Assembly: GCA_016201505.1 (NCBI GenBank)
Contig: JACQCQ010000013.1
Span: forward strand, 80,830 to 144,829
Direction of reading: 5' to 3'
Source of the DNA: Candidatus Sungiibacteriota bacterium
Lineage (GTDB): Bacteria > Patescibacteriota > Minisyncoccia > Sungbacterales > JACQCQ01
Length of the DNA: 64,000 nt
Position 1 is the stretch's first letter. Each line of letters starts with the position of its first letter. Positions 5,935 through 46,253 of the stretch are shown here, piece by piece. Under the pieces are notes generated by a model. That model saw only the letters and a list, made by a program, of their open reading frames with translations. It was not told the DNA's origin and ran no database searches. A program made the position numbers and the translations under genes.

Positions 5935-6363
5935 TTAACTTGAAGCTGGGACCACGTGTATGACCCCGACCATGTCAAAATGCGTCCGTTTTTTACCGTC
6001 GACAACTCCTTCGCCGCAGGGTACGGAGCAGTAAAAAGAAAAGTCGCCTTCTTGGGTCACCGTAAATTCAATCGTGATGGTTGAATTGGCCGGCATTCTT
6101 TGAGAGACGCCGTAGGCGTCAATCGCCAGGCCGTGATCATAATCGTCTTCGTTTACGACTGTGGCCACGATTTTGTCGCCGCGAATAACCGTGATTTGGT
6201 CGGGGAGAAAGCGCCACTGATTCTTTTTGGCGACAATCGTGACGGCTTTTACATTTCCGGTAATGACCGGGGCTTGACCTCTGGGCAAGATGAAATACCG
6301 ATAACCCATGCCGGCGACAAGTATCACGAGGCCGACAATGATTAAAATGAGATATTTATTCAT
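5935..6363 (-). CDS. Membrane-anchored cupredoxin-domain protein with CuA-like ligands.
   Basis: N-terminal TM helix; C-terminal FYCSVPCGEGVVDGKKRTHFDM (Cys-x3-Cys-Gly...His-x2-Met) resembling CuA/cupredoxin copper-site spacing. Confidence 0.6.
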   Translation of the reverse strand: MNKYLILIIVGLVILVAGMGYRYFILPRGQAPVITGNVKAVTIVAKKNQWRFLPDQITVIRGDKIVATVVNEDDYDHGLAIDAYGVSQRMPANSTITIEFTVTQEGDFSFYCSVPCGEGVVDGKKRTHFDMVGVIHVVPASS

Positions 6364-8509: not shown

Positions 8510-8510
8510 A

Positions 8511-8888
8511 TTATTGTCGTGACGATAACACAACTAAACTCACTGCAGCGCCCAAAAGGCCGATGTCGCGAAAGGTGATAAGATCAACACCGAAGAGCAG
8601 CAAAATCCCCGCCATCTCAAGCGCTGACAAGGTCGCCACCATCGTGACCCAGCGCCGCGGCAGAAAAGGAATAATTAAGACGAGAGCAAAGAGTAACTCC
8701 CCGACTCCCTGAATTTTAACAAATGACGCTGTAGTCAGTAGCGGGGCGACGGCCGACTTCAGCCAAAAGGGAATAAAGTTCGTCCAGCTTTTGGGATGTA
8801 CGAAAAGATCGAATCCGGAATAGACATACATCGCACCGAGACTCAAGCGCAGAACCCATTCCGGATTTATTTTTTTTAAAAGTGCCAT
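8511..8888 (-). CDS. DoxX-family membrane protein.
   Basis: Four hydrophobic helices; DoxX-like pattern (YVYSGFDLF...IPFWL...ELLFALVLIIP). Confidence 0.6.
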   Translation of the reverse strand: MALLKKINPEWVLRLSLGAMYVYSGFDLFVHPKSWTNFIPFWLKSAVAPLLTTASFVKIQGVGELLFALVLIIPFLPRRWVTMVATLSALEMAGILLLFGVDLITFRDIGLLGAAVSLVVLSSRQ

Positions 8889-8901
8889 TGGGTTACAAAA
8901 A

Positions 8902-9168
8902 TTATTCGCCCGAGAGTTCTTTAAGTCTTGCGAGAAACTTCGTCTTATCAAATCCGCCTGTCGCCCAGAGCTCGCCGTTCAACAAAATGCCGGGCGAAGC
9001 AAAAATCATGTGTTTTTGGGCGAGCGCCTGCCCTTCGGGTGTGATCACCGACGTGTTTTTGTAGGTCACAGCCGGCCAGTCCTTTTCAATGGAATGCCAA
9101 AACGCCTCAAAGGCCTGGCAATGTGAACAACCGGGCGAAGAAAGCTCTTCTAGAGCAATGTGCTGCAT
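8902..9168 (-). CDS. Thioredoxin-fold protein with a CxxC active site.
   Basis: SSPGCSHCQAF motif; about 90 aa thioredoxin-like length. Confidence 0.6.
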   Translation of the reverse strand: MQHIALEELSSPGCSHCQAFEAFWHSIEKDWPAVTYKNTSVITPEGQALAQKHMIFASPGILLNGELWATGGFDKTKFLARLKELSGE

Positions 9169-9374
9169 GCGATAGACTTCACTACTCACAAGTATACCAC
9201 CCAAAATTGACCCAAAAGCTCGGTCTGTGGACTAACTTTTGGGCTAACGTCAAAATCGGCCCTTATGGGCTCGCCGGCAGAACTTATTTTTGCCGTCATG
9301 ACTGGGCTGAAACGGCAAACTTCGCAGATAAAAGAAAAACGTCCGCCTAGGAACGTTCTTTCTGCATCAACGCA

Positions 9375-10325
9375 TCACTTCTCCACTTCAGCCGCCGGGC
9401 TCCGGCGCTGCATCCCCAAGATATAGTTATAGGCCGAAAGCGCCGCCTTGACCGCATCGCCCACCGAGATGTTATTTTGTTTGTAAATTTCGTCGGTGAC
9501 GTCACCAGCGGCATAAATCCCGAGCTTCGAAGTTGTACCAGTTTTATGATCAATCAGAACTTCCCCAAACGGATTCATCTCGACTAGGCCTTTTGCAATG
9601 TCTGAATTTGGCACCGCGCCAATTTCGACAAAGACCCCTTCCACTGCGAGCTCTTTTTCCTCACCGGTTTTGGCGTCTTTATACTTCAACCCCCTGACAA
9701 AATCGGCGCCCAAAACCTCTTGCGTTAAAGCATCATAAATAATTTCAACTTTGGAATTTGCCCGCACCTCATCTTGCGTGACCGGGTCTCCTTTCAGACT
9801 GTCGGAGCGCACCAAGAGATAAATTTTTGAGGCATAGGGCGTCAGATCCACGACCGCCTCAAGTCCCGCGTTCCCGCCGCCAACCACCGCCACCTTCTTT
9901 TCTGGAAAAAGCGGCGCATCGCAGGTGGCGCAAAAAACTACGCCCTTGCCTTCAAATTTGGCCTCGCCGGGAACACCGAGTCTTCTCCTGCGGCTGCCGG
10001 AGGCGAGGATAATTGTCTTGGTCTCAAAAGACTTCCCCCCATCGGTTTCCACCAGAAATCCGCCAGCAATTTCTGAAATTTTATTGGCGAGTTCGCCTGA
10101 AACAACTTCGAGTCCCTTTTGCGCCCGAATATGCCGCTCCAGTTTTTGGGTTAAATCAAAGCCGGTGAGCAATTCATCCCCAATCCAATTTTCGATCGAA
10201 GCCGACACCGCCGACTGCCCGCCAAACTCTTTAGCAATCAAAACGGACTTTAATTTTTTTCGCGCGACATAGACTGCAGCCCCTGCCGCTGCTGGTCCGC
10301 CGCCGATGATTACCACGTCATACAT
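9375..10325 (-). CDS. trxB: Thioredoxin reductase.
   Basis: VVIIGGGPAA FAD motif; redox-active CATCDA motif; second NAD(P)-binding motif VAVVGGGNAG. Confidence 0.9.
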   Translation of the reverse strand: MYDVVIIGGGPAAAGAAVYVARKKLKSVLIAKEFGGQSAVSASIENWIGDELLTGFDLTQKLERHIRAQKGLEVVSGELANKISEIAGGFLVETDGGKSFETKTIILASGSRRRRLGVPGEAKFEGKGVVFCATCDAPLFPEKKVAVVGGGNAGLEAVVDLTPYASKIYLLVRSDSLKGDPVTQDEVRANSKVEIIYDALTQEVLGADFVRGLKYKDAKTGEEKELAVEGVFVEIGAVPNSDIAKGLVEMNPFGEVLIDHKTGTTSKLGIYAAGDVTDEIYKQNNISVGDAVKAALSAYNYILGMQRRSPAAEVEK

Positions 10326-25075: not shown

Positions 25076-26412
25076 TCTAAACGCACCTCGCATAAGGATC
25101 AGGCTTTCGCCTGCTAGATTTCGATCTCGGGCAATCTCCACGCCGCAGGCAAGGTGCACCTCGCCAAAAGCACGTCTCCGCTGCAGCGGAGCAAGACGAC
25201 CCGAGCTCTGTTATCCCGAACATCGGTACGATTTTTTTTTGCGATGCAGATACCGAGGTAGCGGAGGAAGCAGACGCCCAGTAGAGGATCGGGCGAAGGC
25301 ACTACCTACTAGCTAACCCGATCATACGTGATGTCCACCCCCGCGCTTCTCATCACCTTGTCCAGTGATACTCCGCAAGCGCCACGGGATTTCCTGCATC
25401 GCAAACTGAATTTCTATTTTTCCTTATCTCATCCTGGAGTTTTCGCCGCGCCAAAATTTTTATAAATAAAAACTTAGGCGGGCGTCCGACCTTCTAGGAT
25501 CACTGTTCAATCAGTTTGCTAGTTTTCTAGTTGACTAGTTAACTAGTAGGTCGCTAAGCGACCGGAACTGATGAACTGACAGATTCCTAAAAAGAATATG
25601 TTCCATCGACAGCTTCCGCTACCGATGCCTTGTTCATGTTCTCCCTATGTCGCCATAAGGCATGGACTATATCATCACCCTTTGTTGCAATGTCTTGATT
25701 TTTCTCGGATGCCAACTTCCGATAATCTTCAAGAAGTTTTCTTGAGATTTTTTCGAAATAAACATTCGGAAATAATCTGGATCTATGTGGAAACTTGGAT
25801 TATGGATTTTCCCCGATTGGATTCCAAAACTTATCAGCATTTGTTTAAGTTTCTCCAGTTTGATGCGATCATTCTGCACCAGTTGAATGTAAAACCTTGC
25901 GGATGGACTTCTTGGAATTCCTCCCTCGGCATCAAAGAATCCTCTTAAATACGCTATTTTTTCCTCAGCTGAATTTAACCGCTTAGGATCGAATTTTGTA
26001 TCTAAGAATTTTGCTCTTGTTTCCAATACATACACTTTACGATTTCTGCCTTCGCGATATATCCAGGAGGTATTATCCGTTAGCGCTAGGCAAGATTTTA
26101 GTACTGATAACCAATCAGTACCTAGCTGCGCAAACCGGTGTCTTTGGTTATACCGATTGAAGGTGCCATCGTGAAGCGCACCGAGTAAGTATGCTCGGCA
26201 TTCTGCAACAGAAGGGGCTTGGCGTGTAGTCTCTGAGGCGCCTCCGACGTTACGTCGGAGTTGCCTGCTGATTGTCTGCGCTTTTCGCATTATCACTTCT
26301 AGAACTATTTTAGCTCTATAAGTAGCAAAAAGATACTCAGGTTTTCCAGCATATAGCCAAGTTTTTATGTGAGAATTACTCCTCACAAGTCGCAACGGAC
26401 GCAGTCTGCGCC
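25076..26412 (-). mobile_element. About 1.3-kb intron-like insertion near the 16S 3' end (E. coli position about 1506-1520) encoding a LAGLIDADG homing endonuclease.
   Basis: 16S exon sequence (positions about 1400-1505) occupies 26396-26497 and the terminal about 22 nt occupy 25051-25072. The intervening 1.3 kb has no 16S similarity and carries the LAGLIDADG ORF. Confidence 0.6.
25667..26395 (-). CDS. Double-motif LAGLIDADG homing endonuclease (intron-encoded). The track ORF begins with a TTG; the start is uncertain.
   Basis: Two LAGLIDADG-like motifs: LLGALHDGTF and YLRGFFDAEGGI. Length 242 aa. Confidence 0.8.
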   Translation of the reverse strand: MRLVRSNSHIKTWLYAGKPEYLFATYRAKIVLEVIMRKAQTISRQLRRNVGGASETTRQAPSVAECRAYLLGALHDGTFNRYNQRHRFAQLGTDWLSVLKSCLALTDNTSWIYREGRNRKVYVLETRAKFLDTKFDPKRLNSAEEKIAYLRGFFDAEGGIPRSPSARFYIQLVQNDRIKLEKLKQMLISFGIQSGKIHNPSFHIDPDYFRMFISKKSQENFLKIIGSWHPRKIKTLQQRVMI

Positions 26413-26497
26413 TACGACTTCGTCTTTGTCACCGATCCTACCGTGGGCCACCATAAGTGGACTTCGGGTATTACCAGCTCCCCTGACGTGACGGGCG

Positions 26498-27232
26498 GTA
26501 TTAAGATCACTTCTGTGTCTTACACCACTGGGCGAACGGTTTTCCCGTACCCTAGCGGTTTCTTATATCGCTTTCGCGATATAGATTCGTCCCTTCCCGA
26601 GCACATATTTTTGGAGTCTATTGACGAAATTTATCAATAGGTATATAAATTGTATACGAGGAGGTGAAGGATTATGTTGGGTATCGCGGTTCCACCGATC
26701 CCTGCAAACGCGGGTGTCAGTAGCGATCCGGAAGGACTGCTCGCGCTCCTTCTTCTGATGTTCGTCGTTGTTCCGTCAATCATCGTCATTTTCGGCGGCG
26801 CGATCATGGCGAACGTCGAAGACTGAGATCAGCGGACGGCTTTCACCCCCCACAGCGGCCTCCAGGAGGTCGCTTTCAATTTCTCCAAAAATATGTGCTC
26901 GGTACTATGGATTCTGCTGACTTCTCAATAAGCATCAAGATAAAATTGCTTTTATCCTTTACCTTTCGGACTTAATAAGATCTCCTTCGGTCACCGAATA
27001 TACCATTCTCTCACATCTCGATACTCCGTATATAGCGTAAAATTTGTGCAGATGACTTCTCCATGTACTCGAAGGATCGTCGATCTACGCTACCTATTAG
27101 CGAGTATTCAAGCTATAAGACATATACTTTCGCCCTTCATCCTGAGGATCACTCCTCGAAGGACTGCGATTTCATTTCGCGACTTCTGCAAATCGTGGTG
27201 GGATTTAAACCCACTGGCATACTCGGCTGCAA
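26498..27232 (-). other. About 735-nt insertion in 16S at the conserved 1400 region, between GACGGGCGGT and TGTACAAG.
   Basis: Universal 1392 primer-site sequence is split: ...GACGGGCGGT at 26485-26494 and ...GTACAAAGCTCGAGAACGTATTCACC at 27235-27262. Confidence 0.6.
26674..26826 (+). CDS. Candidate 50-aa hydrophobic peptide with a strong Shine-Dalgarno, encoded inside the 16S insertion (antisense to the rRNA).
   Basis: AGGAGGTG is 5 nt upstream of the ATG. Translation MLGIAVPPIPANAGVSSDPEGLLALLLLMFVVVPSIIVIFGGAIMANVED has one predicted TM helix. Confidence 0.3.
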   Translation: MLGIAVPPIPANAGVSSDPEGLLALLLLMFVVVPSIIVIFGGAIMANVED

Positions 27233-27708
27233 AGCACCCGAGTACAAAGCTCGAGAACGTATTCACCGCGGCATAGCTGATCCGCGATTACTAGCGATTC
27301 CATCTTCAAGGAGTCGAGTTGCAGACTCCTATCTGAACTGGGGCGCACTTTGATGGGATTAGCTCCGCCTTGCGGCTTGGCAACCCATTGTATGCGCCAT
27401 TGTAGCACGTGTGTAGCCCAGGGTATCAGAGGGCCATGCTGACCTCGCGTCATCCCCTCCTTCCTCTCCCGAAAAGGAAGCAGTCTCTCCTGACACATAT
27501 AACAGAAGACAAGGGTTGCGTTCGTTAACCCACTTAAGGGAACAGTTCAAACCACGAACTGACGAGGGCCATGCAGCACCTGTGATTGCCGTCTTGTGAA
27601 CACACCGCGGTTTCTCGCGGTTTTTGCAATCATTTCAAACCCTGGTGAGGTTCCTCGGTTGTCATCGAATTGAACCACATGCTCCACCGCTTGTGCGAGC
27701 TCCCGTCT

Positions 27709-27740
<32 letters not shown>

Positions 27741-27838
27741 TCCCAGGCGGCAGATTTAACGCGTTAGCTGCGCCACTCCGAGGGTCGATACTCGAAATAG
27801 CTAATCTGCATCGTTTAGGGCGTGGACTACTGGGGTAT

Positions 27839-28920
27839 CTACAATTTTGTTGCGACAAAATTGGAATTTCTAAATCCGAATTTCTAATTTCTAAACAAAT
27901 CCGAAATCTCAAATTTCCAAATTGCGGACGAGACATTTCTGCTCGTCTCTCCGTATCGCTACGGAGATCGGACTGTATCATGACGGAAAGTATTACTGGC
28001 GCGGGTTTCGCTTTCGCTCACCCGCGCCGGGACTTCCGCCCTCGGCGTGCAGTCTCTGAGGGTTACGAAAGAGAGATCGGCGCTGTTTCTACATGCCGAT
28101 GGCCGAAACCGGGCCCGTCGAGGCTATCTCCGTAGCTTTCCTTGACGATGCGCTCGACGCGTACCACATTACCCATATCTTGAGCGATGGCGCGAGCTAC
28201 ATTGTCACCTTGAGCTTCGAACTCTACGACTGCCCAATATTTCATAGCTTCTCCTTTTCGTCCTTCCCTGCTGGTTGTCCGTTGACCGATCCGCGTTTAG
28301 CGGATACAGGTCGCACCGGATGCTTTTTTACCACTACTTTACATCGAACTTGCTGACTTCCTTCCGCATTCCTTCAAGGACCCTGCGAATCTCCGGCGAA
28401 TTGCCGTACTTCGCGAGGTACTTGTCGATCAGCTCGAGAAACCCGTTCTGCATGGCCTCGCGGGCCATTTGAGTGAACAAGCTCATTGTTTTTTTCCTTT
28501 CTGTGGTAGCACCGGATACACCGGATGTTCCAGCATATAGCTCCGCCGTCGCCTCACGGCTATGGCGGATCCCAACTTCACCATCATATTTTTCAATGGT
28601 GCGTCGGGACAAGTTTTCCAGGCAGTAGAAATTCGACTCGCTTCACAGCTGGCCGCAGAGAGGCCGGTCGAATTTCTACTGCCTGGTTTTTCCTTTTGAC
28701 GCGTTACTTCGCGTCCTAAGGGGACCATGCTCACGGTACCCCTACCGCCTCACTCTCGTTCGCTGTATCAACAGCGCCCTCAAGCGAGTCACATGTATGC
28801 ACAGAGAAATTTTTTCGAAACTCAAGGGAGGGATCCCGTCGTCGGAACGACAAATCCCTATGGGGAGAGTTGTAACATGCTCCTCCCTTGGTGATGAAAA
28901 AATTTCTCTGTGCAAAACAT
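27839..28920 (-). other. About 1.1-kb insertion in 16S after the 785-805 site. It contains small ORFs (28063..28245 and 28334..28612, minus strand) and a hairpin repeat element.
   Basis: 16S blocks on either side are contiguous in normal 16S (GGACTACTGGGGTATCTA at 27820-27838 and CCCATTCGCTCCCCACGCTTTCG at about 28925). The intervening sequence has no rRNA similarity. Confidence 0.55.
28613..28686. repeat. Hairpin element with 21-bp perfect terminal inverted repeats CCAGGCAGTAGAAATTCGAC...GTCGAATTTCTACTGCCTGG (family member 1).
   Basis: Perfect inverted repeat with a 28-nt interior. The terminal repeats match the element at 29205-29332. Confidence 0.6.
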
Positions 28921-29204
28921 GCGCGAGCGCTTTCGATCCCATTCGCTCCCCACGCTTTCGTCTGTGAACGTCAGGACAAGGCCAGCAACATGCCTTCGCC
29001 TTTGGTATTCCCTATGATATCAACGGATTTCACCCCTACACCATAAGTTCTAGTTGCCTCTCCTTGCCTCTAGTCGTGCCGTTTCGAATGCGGCCTACGA
29101 GTTAAGCCCGTAGATTTAACACCCGACTAACACGACCGTCTGGAGACCCTTTACGCCCAATAAATCCGGATAACGCTTGAAGCCTTCGTATTACCGCGGC
29201 TGCT

Positions 29205-29332
29205 GGCCAGGTAGTAGAAGTTCGACTGCGCGCGAGCGCAAATTATTTTCGAACATTTAATTTTCAGAGCCATGACAGATAGTGCTCCCAACTACAGAAA
29301 TCTTCATTTCATAGTCGAACTTTCACTACCTG
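29205..29332. repeat. 128-bp hairpin intervening element inserted in the 16S 530-loop region. Terminal repeats CCAGGTAGTAGAAGTTCGACTG / CAGTCGAACTTTCACTACCTGG. Family member 2 (IVS/MITE-like).
   Basis: The insertion splits the universally conserved GCTGCTGGCAC (519 site) into GCTGCTGGC | element | CTGGCAC, with a CTGGC direct repeat. The 22-bp terminal inverted repeats are near-identical to those of the 28613 element. Confidence 0.65.
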
Positions 29333-29344
29333 GCTGGCACGAAA

Positions 29345-29995
29345 TTCTACCGCCAATTTGGACTATATCATCACCCCGATGTTCATCGGGGGTCCCGCGT
29401 GTAGTCTCTGAGGGCTCTCTGCTATAAGTTCGATAGACTAGTCTATCGAACTTATAGAAACAGGTTGCCTGCTGATTGTTTCGTTGCGCGTCTTTGCAGT
29501 TTGCAAAACATTTCCGCGGACACAACGAAGTGTTCCAGTCCCGCAAGCCTCCCCACCGCAATACACTGATGTATTGTAGTGGCATGACTCACAGGATTCC
29601 CGAATCCATCTTTTCTTACGGCCAATAGGGCCGCGGGATTGCGATTTGTAACTACTCCGCCTTCGCTAAAAGCTTCGGCGGACAAGTCGTTACACTCGCA
29701 GACAAATCGGGAACATATAGCGAGATTTTCTTATGACGTATTACTACGCCAACTTCGCACCAAGTTTTTCTAACTTCACGAAGTTTGCAGCTTCTTATTC
29801 ATCTGGTACGGTCAGTCGTGCCTCGCTCTAGCGAACCACTCTCAATTTTAAATTTCCAATTTCTAATTTTCAATGAATGTCCTAATGTCTCAATTTCCAA
29901 AGGTTTGGGGTATTGAATCATTAAGAATTGACTGAAAATTGCAAAATTGATCATTGCAAATTGTGTGCCTCACAAAAGTGAGACACGACTTCTTC
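29345..29995 (-). other. About 540 extra nt in the 16S region between E. coli positions about 400 and 515. It contains the operator type 2 palindrome and sequence blocks shared with the LAGLIDADG intron.
   Basis: Blocks GCGTGTAGTCTCTGAGGG (29396-29413) and GTTGCCTGCTGATTGT (29464-29479) also occur at 26222-26238 and 26261-26276 within the LAGLIDADG ORF region. Conserved 16S resumes near 29995 (CTTTACAGACCGAAGTCCTTCTTCCTGCACGCGGCG). Confidence 0.5.
29422..29457. promoter_or_regulatory. Operator type 2, copy d: CTATAAGTTCGATAGACT|AGTCTATCGAACTTATAG, 36-bp perfect palindrome, located inside the 16S insertion.
   Basis: Identical 36/36 to the copy at 35243-35278. Confidence 0.55.
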
Positions 29996-30237
29996 CCAGA
30001 TAAAAGCAGTTTACAGACCGAAGTCCTTCTTCCTGCACGCGGCGTCGCTCGATCAGGCTTTCGCCCATTGTCGAATATTCTCGACTGCAGCCACCCGTAG
30101 GTGTATGAACCGTATCTCAGTTTCATCGTTGGGGATCACGCTCTCACGCCCCCTACCCGTCATAGCCAAGGTGCGCCATTACCACACCTTCTAGCTGATA
30201 GGACCAAGGCTCCTCCCCGAGCGCTCTTGCGAGCTTT

Positions 30238-30296
30238 ACCCCGCCTAAATTTTTGAGCTTTTTCATACTTTCAAAAAGCTCAAAAATTTAGGCGGG
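30238..30296. repeat. 25-bp perfect-stem hairpin expansion in the 16S V1-V2 region.
   Basis: CCCCGCCTAAATTTTTGAGCTTTTT-catactttc-AAAAAGCTCAAAAATTTAGGCGGGG. Confidence 0.5.
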
Positions 30297-30624
30297 GACC
30301 ATTGAGTATTAGCCAATCTTTCGGCTGGTTATTCTCATCTCGGGGGTAGATTCCAAGGTATTACTGAACTCGTTCGCCGCTAACTGGCAAATTGCGCGTA
30401 GCTAATGGAAAATAGTATTGCTACTATAAGCCATCCGCCAATTGCTATAAGCCAATTCGCACGACTTGCATGCCCTATCCACGCCGCCAGCGTTCATCCT
30501 GGACCAGGATCAAATCCTCTAATAGATCAGTTAGTTTTTCAGTTTACTAGTTGCCTAGTTCACATATTGCTAACTGCCGAGAACAAGAGGAAGAAAGAAA
30601 CGAATTTTTAGAAAACTCGCGAAA

Positions 30625-39194: not shown

Positions 39195-41387
39195 TTACCG
39201 ACTTACGTACTGCTCGCCTTCCTCAAATTTAATCGAGACCAGTTTTGAGATGCCATCATCCCCCATGGTGACGCCGTACAAAATTCCGGCGCGCAGCATC
39301 GTCTCGCGGTTATGGGTGATAATAATTAATTGCGTCTTTTTAGAAAGTTCAACCAGCGTATCGGCATATTTTTGCGAGTTGGCTTCATCCAGCGCCGCAT
39401 CCGTTTCATCAAGCACCAAAAAGGGCGGCGGGTTCACCAGGACCATCGCAAATAAGAGCGCAATCGAGGCTAGCGCCCGCTCCCCGCCCGATAACATGGA
39501 AAGCGATCTAATGCGTTTTCGCGGGATATCGACGTCAATATCAATGCCGTATTCAATTTCTTCGGGTTCTTCTAAGCCGTCTTTTTCATCTTCATCACTC
39601 TTCCGACGGCCTAATTTTTCATAGGTTAATTTGGCGTGTCCCCCGCCAAAGATTATTTTAAAATACTGATCAAAGCCCTCATTGATTTTTTTAAATCCGC
39701 GATCAAAGTCATCGGCAATTTGTTTTTCTAAAGTCTCGATTAATTCTTGCAGTGAAGCGCTGGCGGCTTTTAAATCTTCCAGCTCCTTGGTTAAAAACTG
39801 GTAGCGCGATTCCGTGTCGGTGTACTCTTTAACCACCGAGGCGTCGATCCCGCCAATTTCTTCCAGCTTTCCCCGCAGCCGCTCAATTTTTTTAAATAAA
39901 TCTTGCGCGTCAGGATAGTGCGCCAGGTCATTGGCATCTACTTCACGCACCTTGGCTTCAGGCAGATTGACCAGAGCTAACTCTTTTTTAAGGGTCTCGC
40001 GGCGAGAATGTATATTCTCGCGAAGATAATTAGTCCGCTCGAGCTTCGATCGGATCTTGCCTCTTAATTCTTCGGCTTCGCGCAATTCACGCTCCAGTTT
40101 TCGCAAATCGGCCTCTGTGGCTCGCGAGACTGATTCGCGGACGCGCACTGCCTCGCGTTTCTTTGAAAGGTCAGCCGCGGCTTTTTGCAGTTCGGCTTCA
40201 AGCCTTTTTGCCTCCTCTTCCAGGATCTTGAGATCCTTTTGCCATGCCGCGTCCGGCGTAAGTTCCACACTGCCCCGGTCAATATCGCTGATTAAGGACT
40301 CAAGTTCGAAAACGGCGCTCTCAATTTTATGAGCCAACTCTGCGGGATTCCCCAGGCTCTCTTTTAATAACGAAAGGAGTTTGGTAATTTTTTCTTTGAT
40401 GTAGGCAGGGTCGGCAATGCGCACAGAGGGTTTTGCAAGCCTGTCTTTTTCGGCGAGGGCTCGTCCTTCGGCCCTGCCAAATTCGCGTTCCAAATTTTGG
40501 CGCGTCGTCTCCAAAGCCGCGAGTGAATTCTCGAGGCTGGTTACATCATCGGGATTCAGGGCCTCTGCCTCACGCGCTTCAATGGTTGACTTCAGGTGAC
40601 GGACCTTGGCTTCGGCTGATGCCAGTTCTTTTTCAAAAGGAGCGGCGTCTTTGGCAATTTCTTTTTCTTCACGCTCGATCTCAACTAAAATTCGGCAAAA
40701 ATAAATCCGTTCCAATTTTTCCAGATCGGCCTCGAGAGTTTCGCGAGCTTCGGCTTTTTCCGCCTGATGTTTTAAAAATTTAAGATGCGGCGCAATTTCG
40801 CGAACCAGAGCTTCAACTTGGTTCATATTCTCCTGCGTTAAGGCAAATTTCCGTTCGGATTCAATTTTTTTTATCTGATAAACCTTAAGTCCCAAAGCCT
40901 CCTCTAAAATCTCTTTCCGATCACGCGAAGAAGAGAGGAGCCAGCGGTCAACCTCGCCCTGTCCGATGATATTGTGCTTTTGATCTCCAAGCCCCATGCG
41001 CGCTATCAAGCCCACGATGTCTTTCAGGCGCACGATGGAATTATTCAGCGAGTACTCATTTGAGCCGTCGCGGAAAATCTTCCGCTCGACGATGACTTCC
41101 GGAAAATCAAGCGGAATTTTCCCGTCATGATTCTCAAAATACAAAGCCACCGAGGCCTTACCCATTCTCGGGACTTTCGGCGAGCCATTAAAAATCAAGT
41201 CCTCCCCGCGCCTGCCGCGGAGACTCTTCATGGATTGCTCGCCCAAGACCCAGCGGATGGCCTCGGCGATGTTTGATTTGCCCGAGCCGTTCGGCCCGAC
41301 AATGGCGCTGATCTCGACTGGGAATTCCAAAACCGTGTTTTTAGCAAACGATTTGAATCCAGAGATTGAAAGCTTAGAAAGGCGCAT
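39195..41387 (-). CDS. smc: SMC-family ABC-type ATPase, short form (about 730 aa) with coiled coil but no recognisable hinge domain.
   Basis: N-terminal Walker A GPNGSGKSN. The C-terminus has the ABC signature LSGGERALASIALLFA and Walker B LVLDETDAALD. A long Glu/Lys/Ala/Leu-rich coiled-coil middle. Confidence 0.75.
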   Translation of the reverse strand: MRLSKLSISGFKSFAKNTVLEFPVEISAIVGPNGSGKSNIAEAIRWVLGEQSMKSLRGRRGEDLIFNGSPKVPRMGKASVALYFENHDGKIPLDFPEVIVERKIFRDGSNEYSLNNSIVRLKDIVGLIARMGLGDQKHNIIGQGEVDRWLLSSSRDRKEILEEALGLKVYQIKKIESERKFALTQENMNQVEALVREIAPHLKFLKHQAEKAEARETLEADLEKLERIYFCRILVEIEREEKEIAKDAAPFEKELASAEAKVRHLKSTIEAREAEALNPDDVTSLENSLAALETTRQNLEREFGRAEGRALAEKDRLAKPSVRIADPAYIKEKITKLLSLLKESLGNPAELAHKIESAVFELESLISDIDRGSVELTPDAAWQKDLKILEEEAKRLEAELQKAAADLSKKREAVRVRESVSRATEADLRKLERELREAEELRGKIRSKLERTNYLRENIHSRRETLKKELALVNLPEAKVREVDANDLAHYPDAQDLFKKIERLRGKLEEIGGIDASVVKEYTDTESRYQFLTKELEDLKAASASLQELIETLEKQIADDFDRGFKKINEGFDQYFKIIFGGGHAKLTYEKLGRRKSDEDEKDGLEEPEEIEYGIDIDVDIPRKRIRSLSMLSGGERALASIALLFAMVLVNPPPFLVLDETDAALDEANSQKYADTLVELSKKTQLIIITHNRETMLRAGILYGVTMGDDGISKLVSIKFEEGEQYVSR

Positions 41388-41527
41388 ACTATTTAGAATA
41401 TCACGGTTCATTTGGGCGGACGAGATTTTTAGGTTATACGAAAAGGTTGATATACTGACATAATCTATGGTAAAACTCCGTCATCTTTAGCAAAGAAGCT
41501 CATCACTTGAGTACACGCAAAGGCCAT

Positions 41528-42286
41528 ATGCCATCAAACAAACCGCGAATTCTGCGCGGGCGAAAAGAAAACGGAGCGGCTCGAGCAATGGACTCTATCC
41601 CTTTACCCGTGCCTGCGTCTTTCGGAATTCTCAAGACTCGCGTCCCCGCAGTCGGAGGGGGGAAGTTTTTGGCTATCTCGGCAACAAATTTTATGCTGGC
41701 CTTCATGCTCCTCTATCTTGCGGGACTTATGCCCGATGGGGCAAAAGAGATTGCCGGAGCCATTACCCACCCGTTCATATTACAATCCCGGGCGGAAACG
41801 ACTCCCCTATCTGAAACAGAATCTCCCGCAGTCGGCGAGGATTCCAACTGGCGCATCGAAATACAAAAAATTAATGTTGACGCGCCGATTCTTCTGCCTG
41901 ATACGAGGGCGCCCGTCATCTTAAATGAAGATCTGACCCAAGGCGTCGTGCATTATCCGGGGTCGGCCATGCCGGGCGAAATTGGGAACGTATTTTTATT
42001 TGGTCACTCAACGGGACTCGCCTTCGTTCACAACAAGAACTACGAAATCTTTAACGACGTAAAAAAACTGGGGGCAGATGATGTCATAAAACTGGAGAAC
42101 AGCGGGCGCGTATACTTGTACCTTGTCAAGTCAGTCGAAAATAAAAAGGCGGGCGCCGCCGAAATTCAATTGACGTCAGATAAAAAACTGCTTACGCTTT
42201 CTACCTGTAACATTTTCGGCGGCGAGGAGGCGCGTTACATCGTAGAGGCGGAATTTTTAAGGAGCTATCCGGTGGTAGTCGATTAG
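41528..42286 (+). CDS. Sortase (transpeptidase) family protein.
   Basis: N-terminal TM helix. His in FLFGHSTG. Catalytic TLSTC motif (the TLxTC sortase signature). Confidence 0.8.
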   Translation: MPSNKPRILRGRKENGAARAMDSIPLPVPASFGILKTRVPAVGGGKFLAISATNFMLAFMLLYLAGLMPDGAKEIAGAITHPFILQSRAETTPLSETESPAVGEDSNWRIEIQKINVDAPILLPDTRAPVILNEDLTQGVVHYPGSAMPGEIGNVFLFGHSTGLAFVHNKNYEIFNDVKKLGADDVIKLENSGRVYLYLVKSVENKKAGAAEIQLTSDKKLLTLSTCNIFGGEEARYIVEAEFLRSYPVVVD

Positions 42287-42347
42287 TTTTCTAGTTTATC
42301 AGTTTGCTAGTTCAAACTAGCCGACTAGACAACTAGCGAACTGAACG
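42287..42347. repeat. ctagtt/aactag-rich repeat block (family also at 25508, 30527, 31683).
   Basis: AGTTTTCTAGTTTATCAGTTTGCTAGTTCAAACTAGCCGACTAGACAACTAGCGAACTGAAC shares AGTTTTCTAGTT...AACTAGCC.ACTA..AACTAGCGAACT with 31720-31765. Confidence 0.5.
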
Positions 42348-42446
42348 TGCCGCCGGATACTTCCTCGAAAAGTTCGGGGAAAAGATCGTTCACACACCAA
42401 CGAGAAGAAAACCCAAAAACGCCCTAACCGGGAAAGGCGGAGAATC

Positions 42447-43727
42447 GTGAGAAAAATCCTGATCGCGCTTAGTGTGGTCCTCGCCATGGTCTTTTTTGTC
42501 CCCGGCCAGTCGTTCGCCAGGTTCATCTGGGCCAACCCCGGTGAGAGTCCGTTCACGCCGGCAAACACGCAAGGCATCGAAACGCACATCCGCCAGATGT
42601 CCTCCCTTCCGAAAGAGGTACAGGATGATCTGATCCGACAGGTGCAAGACGCACTCGTCGCCAAGGCGGCGCTAAAGCAGCTGATCGACGCGGAGCCAAG
42701 CCTGACCACAGAAGAGAAGTCGACTGCGTGGGAACAATACGCAAACGCGCCGGCCCCGTTCTTCAATGTCGAGGAGCTGGAAAAGCGGAGTCTTCCCCAG
42801 CCCGTACTCAAAAAAGCTCGGGCCTTGGTCAAGATTCCTACCGTCGCCTTCCTAAAGCCCGGCCAAGAGTTCGACTACATGGCTTCGGGCAAGGACCGAA
42901 TCGTCCGCGACGTGGTCTACACGCCGGCTCCCGGCATGCAGGCCAGCGTGCCCGCAATCCATCGACAAGGCAGCGAGCTGAAGGCCTATATCTTCGAGGC
43001 GAGCAAAGACGGCATGGGTTATGTCATCGTCATGCCGACCATCTGCAACAACTTGGCGATGTATCGCCATCAGCTGAATCTCGCCCAACCCGCTCCTACG
43101 CCGCGAGCCACGCCTGATGGGACGCCTACTGCGACGCTCCAGCCGCTTGGCCCCGAGTGGAAAATCTTCCACATCCGGGAGTGGAGGCCAGGACCCACGG
43201 CCAATAAGCTCGTGGGACACGATGGCTACCAGAGCCGCGATCTCGGCTTCGAGCTGACCGAGCATCACAGTCGCGGCGCGAAAACCGAGGCTTTGGCTGA
43301 ACACCTGGCCTGCGGCTATTTCACCTTCAAGATATTCGGCGTCCGCGCGACCGCCATCGGCCAGCCGTTTGTCCAAAACGGCAAGATCCAGGATACGATC
43401 GGCCAAAAGTACGTCGTCCGCCACTACGACGATAATCTCGTCGATCTCGCAATCGAAACGCCGGTCTGCCAAGGCGAGGGCGACATCGCCTTCAAGCGCA
43501 TCGAAGATCCATCCGCGGCGTGGGTCCTGCCGCACAGCGTCGTCTATGTCGAAGGCGCAAAAGAGCGCCACTACCAATATCCTCGCACGCAGGCTCTCAA
43601 AACCTGCTCGGGGCTGGGCAACGACTGGAAGATCTGCGGCAGGAACGTAGTCGCCGAGATTGGCGAATTCGCTCAAGAGTTCGCTGATCTGACGGTGACG
43701 CGATTCAACTTCCGTATCGGTCAGTGA
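42447..43727 (+). CDS. Secreted hypothetical protein (signal peptide) in a high-GC (~60%) island.
   Basis: N-terminal MRKILIALSVVLAMVFFVPGQSFA signal peptide. Long ORF with strongly atypical GC. Terminator immediately downstream. Confidence 0.6.
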   Translation: MRKILIALSVVLAMVFFVPGQSFARFIWANPGESPFTPANTQGIETHIRQMSSLPKEVQDDLIRQVQDALVAKAALKQLIDAEPSLTTEEKSTAWEQYANAPAPFFNVEELEKRSLPQPVLKKARALVKIPTVAFLKPGQEFDYMASGKDRIVRDVVYTPAPGMQASVPAIHRQGSELKAYIFEASKDGMGYVIVMPTICNNLAMYRHQLNLAQPAPTPRATPDGTPTATLQPLGPEWKIFHIREWRPGPTANKLVGHDGYQSRDLGFELTEHHSRGAKTEALAEHLACGYFTFKIFGVRATAIGQPFVQNGKIQDTIGQKYVVRHYDDNLVDLAIETPVCQGEGDIAFKRIEDPSAAWVLPHSVVYVEGAKERHYQYPRTQALKTCSGLGNDWKICGRNVVAEIGEFAQEFADLTVTRFNFRIGQ

Positions 43728-43765
43728 CGAGATGAGGCGGCGCGGAACTCCGCGCCGCCTCATCA
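43728..43765 (+). terminator. Rho-independent terminator.
   Basis: GATGAGGCGGCGCG-gaactc-CGCGCCGCCTCATC, a perfect 14-bp stem. Confidence 0.6.
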
Positions 43766-43775
43766 GAAAATTTTT

Positions 43776-44477
43776 ATGTCAACTGCCAACAAAAAATTTA
43801 TTTTGGAAAATTCTTTTACGGGGAGATTTCTCTTTCTCTTGACTTTGTTATGCATATTTAGTTTTTCACTTATTTTAATAAACCGAGAATTCAACGCCCA
43901 TATTTCCTTCATCCATTCAGCCTTAGCGGACGCTGGCGGAGAGGGTTCCGGTGACGCGGGCGGAGAGGGATCGGGAGATGCCGGGGGAGAAGGCGCGGGT
44001 GATGCGGGAGGAGAGAGCATCGGAGGAGTTAGTGTTGCCCCGGGTCAGCCTAGCGGCAATCCGCCGGGCGATCAGCCGGGCACGCCGCCCTCAAGTCCGC
44101 CGACCGCACCAATCAGTCCGCCGCCGCCTGCACCACCGTCCCCTCCATCACCTCCATCACCTCCATCACCTCCAACTCCACCTTCACCGCCAGGCTCTCC
44201 GGGCTCACCGCCTTCAAGTCCCCCGGGCGGCGGGGGAAGTTTTTCTCCGGGAATTTGTCTTGATCCGGGCGGCTTAAATTACGGCGGCTCGCTGCCCTGC
44301 ACGTATCCCAGCGGCAATATCTCGTTAAGAAAAGAAATTTCGCCGACTGCATTTATTTATTTATCGCAAGTGCCTTATACCGGCATTGGCGACAATACCG
44401 AAACTATTGGTTTCTTTCTCTCACTTCTTGGTCTTAGTCTCGCCGGAACATATTTAATGACGAATCGAAAAACCTAA
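43776..44477 (+). CDS. Pro-rich repetitive surface protein with a C-terminal cell-wall-sorting-signal-like tail (candidate sortase substrate).
   Basis: N-terminal TM/signal. DAGGEGSG x4 repeats. PSPPSPPSPP tract. C-terminal VPYTG, then the hydrophobic IGFFLSLLGLSLAGTYLM, then the basic tail NRKT. Confidence 0.55.
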   Translation: MSTANKKFILENSFTGRFLFLLTLLCIFSFSLILINREFNAHISFIHSALADAGGEGSGDAGGEGSGDAGGEGAGDAGGESIGGVSVAPGQPSGNPPGDQPGTPPSSPPTAPISPPPPAPPSPPSPPSPPSPPTPPSPPGSPGSPPSSPPGGGGSFSPGICLDPGGLNYGGSLPCTYPSGNISLRKEISPTAFIYLSQVPYTGIGDNTETIGFFLSLLGLSLAGTYLMTNRKT

Positions 44478-44483
44478 CACGGT

Positions 44484-45470
44484 ATGGCCCAACTTCAGGC
44501 ACTATTACGTCCCTTGCTCGCAATTGCGGTCCTCTTCATCATCCTGATTTTAATCGTCGGGCTGATTGGCAAGATGTTTTCCGGCATTCATTTTGGTTCG
44601 CTGCTTTCTGCCATATCAATTTCGCGCGAGAAAATTAGCGTGGCCGCCGCTCCGGCTGTCGTTGCCTCCGGCGAGAAAACCGCCATCTCTTGGAACCATG
44701 AGCATAAAAGCGCTAACGGATTATATGAGCTTGTCTATCCCTGCCGAGAGAATCTAATAATAAAAACTGAATCAGGCGAGACAATCTCCTGCAACTCAAG
44801 TTATCCCCTGGGCTCATCAAACTCGATTATCATTATTCCCACTCTCGAAGGCAGCGATACGGCCAACATTCCCGTCTCTATCAGCTTTACGCCAAACGGC
44901 GCGGATCGCGTCGCTCTTTCCGGTTCAGTCCAATTGACCATTAACCCAGCATCGGGTGCATCGACCAGCAAAGCCAGCACGTCAACTAAAGGGTCAAGTG
45001 AGAGCACAAAACCCGGTAATAAAAAAATGAATACCTACCCCATACCTGGAGGCCAATCAACGCCGCCTTTGGCGAATCAGAACGGCTATCCTGATTTGGC
45101 TATCGAGCTTATCGCTGCGGGCTCACTTGCGACAACCAGCGGGACCGAGACGCTGATACCAAAATCTACGCTTCTCCCAGGCGAGCAGGCGGGAGTTCGG
45201 TTTATTATAAAAAATATCGGCAGCGGACCATCCGGCCCCTGGATTTTTAACGCCAATCTCCCAATCAATTCGAGCGGCAGTTTCTTTATCTCGGATTCAC
45301 AAGCTTCGCTAAACCCCGGCGAGAGTGTCGTGTTTACCATGGGCTTTAATAACCTGAAAAATTCCGGCGCTAACGTCGCAACCTTCACCGTTGATCCAAA
45401 CGCCTATATCTCGCGTGACCTCAATCGAGCCAATAACTCGTTCTCGGTCACCATCAATCGAGGATACTAA
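44484..45470 (+). CDS. Membrane-anchored surface protein with a C-terminal CARDB-like domain.
   Basis: N-terminal TM helix. Ser/Thr-rich linker. C-terminal PDLAIELIAAG...VRFIIKNIGSG...ESVVFTMGFN...ATFTVDPN pattern typical of CARDB beta-sandwich domains. Confidence 0.55.
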   Translation: MAQLQALLRPLLAIAVLFIILILIVGLIGKMFSGIHFGSLLSAISISREKISVAAAPAVVASGEKTAISWNHEHKSANGLYELVYPCRENLIIKTESGETISCNSSYPLGSSNSIIIIPTLEGSDTANIPVSISFTPNGADRVALSGSVQLTINPASGASTSKASTSTKGSSESTKPGNKKMNTYPIPGGQSTPPLANQNGYPDLAIELIAAGSLATTSGTETLIPKSTLLPGEQAGVRFIIKNIGSGPSGPWIFNANLPINSSGSFFISDSQASLNPGESVVFTMGFNNLKNSGANVATFTVDPNAYISRDLNRANNSFSVTINRGY

Positions 45471-45505
45471 AACTTGAATTAAGAATTAGGAATAAAGAAT
45501 TAGAC

Positions 45506-45541
45506 GAAAACCAAAAATCGGCCGCGGCCGATTTTTGGTTT
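45506..45541. terminator. Bidirectional terminator between the convergent CARDB gene and rnc.
   Basis: CCAAAAATCGGCCGCGGCCGATTTTTGG hairpin with flanking A/T runs. Confidence 0.65.
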
Positions 45542-46253
45542 AGCCCCAACTCTTAACTTGCAGACCCAAACGCGCGGCTTCTTCTTGGGCAATTTGTTTA
45601 GATGGCCCCTCGCCTTCGGCTACCAATTCCCTCCCCAAATAAATGCCGACCACAAAATGCTTGTCGTGATCCGGCCCCCATTCTCGAATGACTTCATAGG
45701 TTGGCGTGATCCCGACGCGCTCTTGTGCTTCTTCTTGAAACAATGATTTGGGATCTTGATACAGCCGTTTTTCCAAAACCATCTCGAGTTTCGGCATCAC
45801 GCTACCCATAATAAATTTTTTGGCCATGGCGTATCCCTGGTCTAAGTAAATGGCACCGGTTAAGGCCTCGAAGGTATTGGCCAAAATGTACTGCCTGGCG
45901 CGGCCGACGTCTTTGGCTTCGCCTCGCGAAAGCAAAAGAAATTCATTAAAACTTATACCCAGCGCCACATCTGAAAGCATTTTTGAATTAACCAGTGCCG
46001 CACGGAGGGTGGTTAACTCCCCCTCGGGCCTGGCCGGGAACATGGCATATAACTCCTCGGTTACGACAAGCTCCAGCACCGCATCTCCCAAAAACTCGAG
46101 CCGCTCATTGTGGCCCATGCCGAGATTGGGATTTTCGTTTAAATAGGAACGATGCAAAAATGCCTGACGCAACAGGTCCTTGTTTTGGAACGTTACATTG
46201 ATTTTTTCCTCCAACTTTCTAAAATCGGACATGTCCTCGGAAGCACGAATCAA
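45540..46253 (-). CDS. rnc: Ribonuclease III.
   Basis: RNase III signature ERLEFLGDAVL plus a dsRBD C-terminus. Confidence 0.9.
   Translation of the reverse strand: MIRASEDMSDFRKLEEKINVTFQNKDLLRQAFLHRSYLNENPNLGMGHNERLEFLGDAVLELVVTEELYAMFPARPEGELTTLRAALVNSKMLSDVALGISFNEFLLLSRGEAKDVGRARQYILANTFEALTGAIYLDQGYAMAKKFIMGSVMPKLEMVLEKRLYQDPKSLFQEEAQERVGITPTYEVIREWGPDHDKHFVVGIYLGRELVAEGEGPSKQIAQEEAARLGLQVKSWG

Follow-up and report, generated by a model that had tools for sequence, protein, structure and literature searches.

What does a sortase display on the surface of a bacterium of the candidate phyla radiation (CPR, Patescibacteria), and why is the gene that follows it so much richer in GC than its surroundings? 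Both questions are raised by four head-to-tail genes on the + strand, at positions 41528-45470 of a 64-kb stretch of DNA (the window) from a metagenome-assembled genome (MAG) of Candidatus Sungbacteria, a member of the Parcubacteria within the CPR. The proteins are 100% identical to entries from this MAG. The genes encode a sortase, a 426-amino-acid (aa) secreted protein that we call X, a Gly/Asp- and proline-rich protein carrying the motif PYTG (the PYTG protein) and a CARDB-like protein. All four open reading frames (ORFs) are present as described in the original prediction, which was made from the letters of the window and saw in them a cell-surface cluster with a horizontally acquired secreted component. 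We consider it fairly probable that the four genes are a copy of a surface-display cassette, built around a sortase, that is conserved in and specific to Parcubacteria.

The sortase family is present in more than half of the CPR (PMC6744442). Papers on surface appendages of the CPR deal with type IV pili and, recently, with the Pam pili of Saccharimonadia and Microgenomatia, and the Pam paper has sortases as background only. We found no description of the PYTG motif or of the cassette in the literature, the coverage of which was incomplete, so that this is not proof of novelty.

Results

The sortase and the PYTG protein are strictly paired in Parcubacteria

A scan with the sortase profile, at one genome per species, recovered 80 loci, all of them in MAGs of Patescibacteria/Parcubacteria, with hosts among the Sungii-, Lipton-, Kaiser-, Taylor-, Wolfe-, Nomura- and Paceibacteria. 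In these loci we called the partner genes with local hidden Markov models (HMMs) built from the family alignments. Most of the 80 have a match to the CARDB-like HMM beside the sortase, and most have a protein with PYTG and a transmembrane (TM) helix downstream of it. The cassette is found in metagenomes too. Its conservation in ~80 Parcubacteria species, counted as species-level genomes, bears out the proposal of a coherent cell-surface cluster.

The reverse test, a metagenome scan with the motif alone ([YS]LSQ[VIL]PYTG), likewise gave 80 loci. A sortase lies upstream on the same strand in every motif-anchored locus with 1.2 kb or more of sequence before the PYTG ORF (32 of 32), and the motif-anchored loci that have no sortase match all have an ORF start no more than 250 nt from the contig end. 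The linkage is a strict genomic pairing of one sortase with one substrate. Since it holds in both directions, the proline-rich protein is very probably the substrate of the sortase, and no other C-terminus resembling a sorting signal was found within the 64-kb window. The CARDB-like gene, which stands beside the sortase in most loci and is often divergently transcribed, is the most constant partner of the enzyme.

The first gene of the cassette matches the sortase family of Pfam (PF04203, peptidase C60) over residues 117-249, scoring 76.7 bits (cut-off 26.6). This match, together with a catalytic His, Cys and Arg that are invariant in 8 relatives, confirms the proposed sortase with its TLSTC motif. 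A conserved N-terminus, P(R/K)(I/L)LRG, common to the homologues, speaks for the proposed start at 41528; alternative starts are a TTG at 41507 and an ATG at 41588, the latter being NCBI's 232-aa call. All NCBIfam class models score far below their cut-offs, and we therefore leave the enzyme unclassified. The scores, with cut-offs in brackets, are 47.4 (160) for class E, 42.7 (140) for SrtD, 40.3 (165) for class D, 35.6 (160) for class C, 22.7 (166) for class F, 16.5 (154) for class B and 14.7 (158; E 0.018) for class GN, and the generic model TIGR01076 gives 37.2 (39.35). The pilus-specific class that the original prediction had guarded against is not indicated. By profile score the sortase is nearest to classes D and E, and the closest solved chains found by sequence profile are 4d70 (E 1.3e-13) and 2ln7.

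The PYTG protein carries an extended motif and, in most relatives, a long tail

The C-terminus of the PYTG protein reads FIYLSQVPYTG-IGDNTETI-GFFLSLLGLSLAGTYLM-TNRKT, so that VPYTG is followed by 8 aa, a 17-aa hydrophobic stretch, TNRKT and the stop codon, in the classical order of pentapeptide, hydrophobic stretch and basic tail. The mature part consists of 26% Pro, 22% Gly and 16% Ser, and the ectodomain, of 147 aa, is acidic. P, T and G stand in every one of 115 distinct motif regions and Y in 114 of them; the L-S-Q before PYTG and two hydrophobic positions are strongly conserved. The family thus has an extended motif, (Y/S)L(S/T)Q(I/V)PYTG, right before the TM helix.

The tail that follows the TG is at most 45 aa long in 12 of the 115 members, 46-80 aa in 8 and longer than 80 aa in 95, and its median length is 256 aa. 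Hence the canonical sorting-signal layout that had been claimed stands for the window copy and not for the family. The long tails share a conserved domain, ...GDR..VF..R....G.....F......LDDAYR.R..G..., which has no Pfam match and is probably cytoplasmic. Its motifs DDIVKGLSRE, GDR..VF..R and LDDAYR.R.DG are seen in many loci; labelling the related loci fetched for comparison L001, L002 and so on, examples are L002 (5864-6970), L007 (7476-10040), L035 and L040. Short-tailed forms of the classical layout occur in the window and in L005/L006, L009, L025, L055, L057 and L075. L001 and L002, the nearest syntenic relatives of the window, are long-tailed. The PYTG gene of L001 was split by the gene caller, which also placed a spurious 116-aa antisense ORF over the Pro-rich part.

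In some relatives the ectodomain contains SpaA_2 or PKD domains, as wall-anchored proteins typically do. The pilin motif YPK[NDGS] is present in none of 101 PYTG ectodomains.

X belongs to a fast-evolving family that occupies one slot

X begins with a predicted signal peptide, MRKILIALSVVLAMVFFVPGQSFA (residues 1-24), with cleavage before RF. An N-terminal helical/beta domain is followed by a Pro/Thr linker (~211-229) and a C-terminal beta domain. The AF2 model of X, made from 13 sequences, has a mean pLDDT of 75.5, with 85-95 in the N-terminal half. Structure searches with this model found no fold relative, and profile searches of the PDB sequences with the X and CARDB-like families gave no match.

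A word-indexed homologue search with X found X alone. When 1.84 billion representatives were searched exhaustively, 13 relatives came up, at 21-35% identity; those that could be placed (P0060, P0062 and P0065) lie, all three, directly after the sortase of a Parcubacteria cassette. Iterated local profiles raised the count of distinct family members in the fetched loci to 22. Further slot proteins form a second set, linked to the family transitively (L079-L034, L045-L035), and a third small slot group (L005/L006, L028) holds the same position with no homology to X detected. The family shares W28, in W..PG..P at the mature N-terminus, paired cysteines, QSRD and, near the C-terminus, YP.SG.L.TC...CG. 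All X relatives examined sit right after this sortase, in Parcubacteria. Judged from these alignments the X family is restricted to Parcubacteria and evolves fast, and in a large sub-lineage X sits between the sortase and its substrate. In one related locus, L004, an extra TonB_C-like gene stands between sortase and X (entries 7524-8429 and 8455-9762); there the public gene calls missed X and placed two spurious high-GC ORFs, and the X HMM recovers a 435-aa ORF.

X is flanked by elements of its own. Its leader carries a motif of the form (A/G)GA(T/C)ACTTCCTCGAAA in the window and in L001, L002, L009 and L053, which may be a promoter or an element of the 5' untranslated region of X. After the motif comes a small hairpin, in the window CCTCGAA/TTCGGGG. 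Past the stop codon of X the first 90 nt have a predicted folding energy of -37 kcal/mol, and a strong hairpin of the same kind lies 3' of 21 of 21 distinct X-family genes; by its sequence it is probably a terminator or a 3' stabiliser. With the hairpin and the conserved leader, X appears to be under control of its own, and the PYTG and CARDB-like genes, which are 6 nt apart, are probably transcribed together. The 3' hairpin prompted us to look for an integron- or cassette-like boundary, and we rejected this candidate on finding no recombinase and no repeat boundaries.

Two further observations concern the DNA of X and its leader. Five CTAG lie within 47 nt (42291-42336) just past the stop codon of the sortase; this tetranucleotide is 3.4-fold under-represented in the window (73 observed, ~249 expected), and the cluster is absent from the matching intergenic region of related loci. 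A 303-aa antisense ORF (42852-43763, - strand) and several shorter ORFs overlap X. We take them for by-products, not genes, because high GC leaves few stop codons.

GC richness is a property of the X family

The 426-aa gene had been placed in a sharply GC-rich island, and so it is: its GC is 0.594-0.595 against 0.493 for the window, and of all stretches of 1281 nt in the 64 kb it is the richest in GC, only 0.1% of them reaching 0.595. The GC at third codon positions (GC3) of X is 0.744, compared with a mean of 0.539 (standard deviation 0.076) over 45 ORFs, and GC2 is unchanged. Its synonymous codons differ from those of the rest of the window (chi-square 174, 41 degrees of freedom, p 2.5e-18), mostly by a shift from T to C at third positions; a shift from A to G is seen as well.

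We then compared GC3 with the median of the locus throughout the cassette family. The median excess is +0.185 for X (n=18, 16 positive, Wilcoxon p 2.5e-4) and +0.152 for the divergent slot proteins (n=15, 15 positive, p 6e-5), so that 31 of the 33 slot genes are positive. The same measure is +0.005 for the sortase genes (n=78), -0.010 for the CARDB-like genes (n=70 distinct copies with usable background) and -0.043 for the PYTG genes (n=50). The slot gene has the highest GC3 of its ~16-kb locus in 27 of 35 cases. Slot-gene GC3 stays at 0.72 ± 0.09 over host backgrounds of 0.39-0.78 (slope 0.31, r 0.34). Ribosomal protein genes in these loci have no GC3 excess (L32, +0.014, n=20; S16, -0.022, n=5), and codon optimisation driven by expression is therefore unsupported.

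The GC-rich island is thus a property of the X family and not a single foreign insertion. As the whole family has the trait in a fixed position, one recent import cannot explain it, and the horizontal acquisition that the original prediction read from the island is unsupported as a one-off event: the family always follows the sortase and is GC3-rich throughout. The composition is atypical, yet the same slot is held in 35 loci, which is not the pattern of a horizontal island. We found no mobility genes among the window ORFs at X, nor flanking direct repeats in a repeat scan.

Three other genes of the window have raised GC3. A 212-aa ORF (514-1152, - strand) with no Pfam match has a GC of 0.626 and a GC3 of 0.80; being the only window ORF more GC3-rich than X, it is a second compositional outlier. 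The excess is moderate in a heavy-metal P-type ATPase with HMA and E1-E2 domains (3388-5925, - strand; GC3 0.65) and in a 725-aa protein with DsbD_TM (6356-8533, - strand; GC3 0.64).

X alleles are incongruent with their flanks

Pairwise percent identity between X proteins saturates near 30%, and we used normalised alignment scores instead. Between L001 and L002 these are 0.79 for the sortase, 0.82 for the CARDB-like protein and 0.05 for X. The X of L001 is nearer to those of L009 (0.17) and L010 (0.15) than to that of L002. For L009 and L010 themselves X scores 0.59 but the sortase 0.46. Likewise, the window X is nearest that of L053, and the window sortase is nearest those of L001 and L002.

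At the DNA level (blastn), L001 and L002 are ~74% identical in the sortase, in the leader and in the signal-peptide part of X; similarity is lost across mature X and the PYTG ectodomain and is back at the membrane/cytoplasmic part of the PYTG protein, from where it continues through the CARDB-like gene. Since the X trees disagree with the flanking genes, the sequences suggest that alleles of X have been exchanged among Parcubacteria. To account for the hypervariability we considered a diversity-generating retroelement and found no sign of one: no reverse transcriptase is annotated by Pfam among the called genes of the loci that we examined.

The CARDB-like protein is anchored and weakly recognised by CARDB profiles

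The last gene had been described as encoding a TM-anchored CARDB protein. The TM anchor stands and the CARDB call is borderline, with 21.8 bits (E 2.3e-4) against PF07705, whose gathering score is 22.7. Seven of 8 family members match CARDB at E <0.01 (best E 2.1e-6). The AF2 model is poor (pLDDT 48.5) and has one TM helix followed by an all-beta part. A word-indexed homologue search with this protein gave 2 matches.

Features of the cassette and neighbouring genes

Coordinates are collected in Table 1. The frame of SMC, RNase III, NusB and L32 genes around the cassette recurs in L001, L002, L004, L007 and L008. In L005/L006 and L009/L013, where the flanks are different, the gene before the sortase encodes a conserved polytopic membrane protein of 164 aa, and a TraG/TrwB-like ATPase gene comes after the CARDB-like gene. 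The SMC-like protein of the window has 738 aa, and the head halves match SMC_N over residues 11-722. Its relatives in L002, L003, L004 and L007 are likewise short (726-729 aa), and the recurrence of this length points to an unusually short coiled coil for an SMC.

Elsewhere in the window, a 16S rRNA gene (27198-30525, - strand) matches Rfam in two pieces with an insertion between them. A group I intron match (25643-26423, - strand) contains a LAGLIDADG endonuclease ORF (25667-26395), and there is a weak match to a group II intron domain (26884-26960, - strand). No large-subunit rRNA match is listed in the window, and no tRNA gene is found in the whole 64 kb.

Table 1. The cassette and its frame: features and their positions in the window.
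Feature	Position	Strand	Remarks
Short SMC gene	39195-41411	-	Housekeeping frame beside the cassette
Membrane-anchored sortase	41528-42286	+	Pfam PF04203; TM at ~ residues 50-72, counted from the 41507 start
Sortase catalytic His (FGHS)	42005-42007	+	Invariant in alignment
Sortase catalytic Cys of TLSTC	42206-42208	+	Invariant in alignment
Sortase catalytic Arg	42233-42235	+	Invariant in alignment
X leader, intergenic	42287-42446	+	Five CTAG, conserved motif, GGAG ribosome-binding site before GTG
Conserved leader motif GGATACTTCCTCGAAA	42355-42370	+	Common to L001, L002, L009, L053
X, 426-aa secreted protein with conserved cysteines	42447-43727	+	Signal-like N-terminus; GTG start
Inverted repeat I5, perfect 16 bp, GC-rich	43731-43764	+	Directly after X stop codon
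PYTG protein, 233 aa, putative dedicated sortase substrate	43776-44477	+	Motif and sortase linkage
PYTG protein signal/anchor h-region	43824-43877	+	
PYTG protein predicted signal peptidase site after Ala51 (...ALA then DAGG)	43929 (mature start)	+	
PYTG protein acidic Gly repeats, 3 x 24 nt (DAGGEGSG)	43929-44000	+	
PYTG protein Pro-rich stalk	~44037-44225	+	
PYTG protein Cys loop C161-C175 (C-x13-C)	44256-44300	+	
PYTG protein motif YLSQVPYTG	44358-44384	+	
PYTG protein TM	44409-44459	+	
PYTG protein tail TNRKT	44460-44474	+	
CARDB-like protein, 328 aa	44484-45470	+	N-terminal TM anchor
CARDB-like TM helix	~44511-44576	+	
CARDB-like beta domain 1	~44655-44945	+	Ser/Thr-rich linker follows
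Divergent C-terminal CARDB-like domain	45156-45446	+	
Terminator-like inverted repeat I1, bidirectional	45495-45554	.	30-nt arms, 80% complementary; between cassette and RNase III
RNase III	45540-46253	-	Frame gene, convergent with cassette; NusB and L32 also in frame

Discussion

We propose that X, the PYTG protein and the CARDB-like protein would be exported by Sec, and that the sortase would cleave the PYTG motif between T and G on the outer face of the membrane and transfer the ectodomain to the cell wall or to another nucleophile of the envelope. In the window the displayed ectodomain would be a disordered stalk of 147 aa, acidic and rich in Pro, that contains a single small disulfide loop, and a short remnant, the TM helix with NRKT, would remain in the membrane. 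X, which has no anchor of its own, would form the rapidly varying outermost part, held non-covalently on the stalk and/or on the CARDB-like protein; X, and probably the ectodomain too, would be turned over by recombination. A role in host contact or attachment is plausible and speculative.

The enzyme resembles the dedicated, non-housekeeping sortases that have one or few adjacent substrates, such as those of classes D and E (4d70, 2ln7), in the Cys of TLxTC, the His and Arg, the N-terminal membrane anchor, the best profile matches, and a gene that adjoins that of a presumed substrate, whose motif has Pro, Thr and Gly as its second, fourth and fifth residues. It differs from them in scoring at most 47 bits, below all NCBIfam cut-offs of 140-166, in the extended motif (Y/S)LSQ(I/V)PYTG with an invariant aromatic X position, in the large cytoplasmic domain of most substrates, in its CARDB-like and X partners, and in its restriction to Parcubacteria. 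The proteobacterial class GN ('marine') cassettes (TIGR03784) consist of one sortase, one target and accessory proteins. The present cassette has the same one-to-one pairing of sortase and target in a conserved multi-gene arrangement with non-substrate accessories, but the profile match is marginal (14.7 bits against 158), and motif, accessories and phylum differ.

Several points weigh against cleavage and display at PYTG. A check by which the original prediction could be refuted was recognition of the Pro-rich protein's tail by sorting-signal HMMs, and the tail failed the standard LPXTG models: the Pfam anchor models (Gram_pos_anchor) give no match at E up to 10, and the best NCBIfam anchor match, NF033073, has an E of 0.2 and 11.7 bits against a cut-off of 48. 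The motif is internal in 95 of 115 members (~83%), where a large conserved cytoplasmic region follows, and we know of no characterised sortase substrate with an internal motif and such a region. The motif statistics are partly circular, as some of the positions were already set by the regular expressions and by the pattern used in the scan. Cleavage between T and G, and the acceptor, are inferred. One could suppose that PYTG belongs to the conserved juxtamembrane part of a bitopic protein with a receptor or signalling role, and that the sortase acts elsewhere or merely binds the motif. Beside the failed models, the 80-370 aa that most members run past the TM helix with a conserved cytoplasmic domain would fit this, and so would conservation that reaches well upstream of the pentapeptide (hydrophobic-x-L-S-Q), unlike that of classical LPXTG signals. 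We hold it unlikely, however, since the PYTG-sortase linkage is perfect in both directions and an invariant P-x-T-G on the outer side, right before the TM helix, is the geometry that a sortase needs. Furthermore, short forms with a TM helix and basic tail arose repeatedly (12 of 115, the window included), keeping the motif with the cytoplasmic domain gone, and the window offers no other candidate substrate. A sortase-polymerised pilus of the Gram-positive type, with the PYTG protein as shaft pilin and X or the CARDB-like protein at tip or base, is most improbable. A cluster layout like that of pilus islands, a sortase with secreted or anchored beta-rich proteins, and the repeated prealbumin-like SpaA_2 domains in some ectodomains recall SpaA-type pili; however, the pilin motif is absent from all ectodomains searched, no Lys is invariant in the X or CARDB-like alignments, each locus has a single sortase, not of class C, and the window ectodomain is a disordered stalk with no pilin fold. 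We rejected the pilus reading after the pilin-motif test.

The composition of X has been open to several explanations as well. It is very unlikely that X is a recent foreign acquisition, transferred once into a native sortase cluster. X is the GC maximum of the window and its most deviant gene in codon usage (chi-square per codon 0.41, at most 0.31 elsewhere), has its own leader and strong 3' hairpin, and has a phylogeny incongruent with its flanks, all of which would speak for a recent transfer. Set against this, X-family genes fill the same slot in 35 distinct loci of diverged Parcubacteria and are GC3-rich in 31 of 33; 1.84 billion representatives yielded only 13 relatives, the three placeable ones all in the same Parcubacteria cassette; and no mobile-element gene or direct-repeat boundary lies beside X. 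Translational selection on a very abundant, S-layer-like coat protein would make the composition silent on transfer and recombination. We find this doubtful. It would account for the shift from T to C in two-fold pyrimidine-ending codons (TTC 0.86 against 0.28, ATC 0.88 against 0.36, CAC 0.73 against 0.35), for a strong terminator-like hairpin after every X-family gene and a conserved leader before X, and for a secreted, fast-evolving product like that of coat protein genes. But L32 and S16 lack a GC3 excess in the same loci, those of the window are far less biased than X, and the G-ending codons of Lys and Glu rise too, which fits a general GC pressure better.

By analogy, the high GC3 of X most likely stems from high recombination, with GC-biased gene conversion, or from a shared pool of mobile alleles, and not from recent import from outside; a separate mobile pool with its own composition is another wording of the recombination idea. 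In 11 of the 14 bacterial groups examined by Lassalle et al. (PMC4450053), genes that recombine have the higher GC3, so biased gene conversion at a recombination hot spot is a reasonable candidate cause. The raised GC3 is alike in both cases, but the excess at X (+0.15 to +0.19) is far above the genome-wide effects described there. One point tells against recombination as the whole account: similarity of X does correlate with that of the sortase (Mantel r 0.51, p 2e-4; sortase with CARDB-like protein, 0.79). Much of the history of X would therefore be vertical, and its inheritance mixed.

In Clostridioides difficile, S-layer cassette switching exchanges surface-protein alleles by recombination. 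There too a conserved frame surrounds a hypervariable surface segment whose phylogeny is at odds with its flanks; a lattice of X, however, would be speculative.

For the long-tailed majority a function of the cytoplasmic domain left after cleavage is speculative and would rest on a precedent. In streptococcal LPXTG adhesins the membrane remnant of sortase cleavage (the 'C-peptide') signals (PMC11502775), so that a fragment C-terminal to the cut can have a function; the C-peptide has ~30 aa, compared with conserved cytoplasmic domains of 100-370 aa in the PYTG relatives, and the window copy has no such domain. A bolder combination can be entertained tentatively, and taken whole it is improbable: the sortase would cut a bitopic protein at an internal PYTG, coupling display to release or reorganisation of the cytoplasmic domain (outside-in signalling or maturation, the domain being secondarily lost in the window), and at the same time the ectodomain and X would form a recombining hypervariable cassette that circulates in Parcubacteria, recombination raising GC3 and X being a candidate determinant of host range or host contact.

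How CPR/Patescibacteria build their surfaces and recognise their hosts is largely unexplained, and the cassette bears on both. It gives a specific pair of sortase and putative substrate with a new extended motif, for which the peptides YLSQVPYTGIGD and FIYLSQVPYTGIGD are directly assayable. Most of the substrates have an architecture unexpected for proteins of their kind, an internal signal joined to a cytoplasmic domain. The compositional anomaly is family-wide: a GC3 near 0.72 is kept in hosts of 0.39-0.78 and is tied to allele replacement. If biased gene conversion does act at this diversifying surface locus, the cassette would be an unusually clean natural example of it, and high GC3 would help in practice to mark out the variable surface genes of uncultured bacteria.

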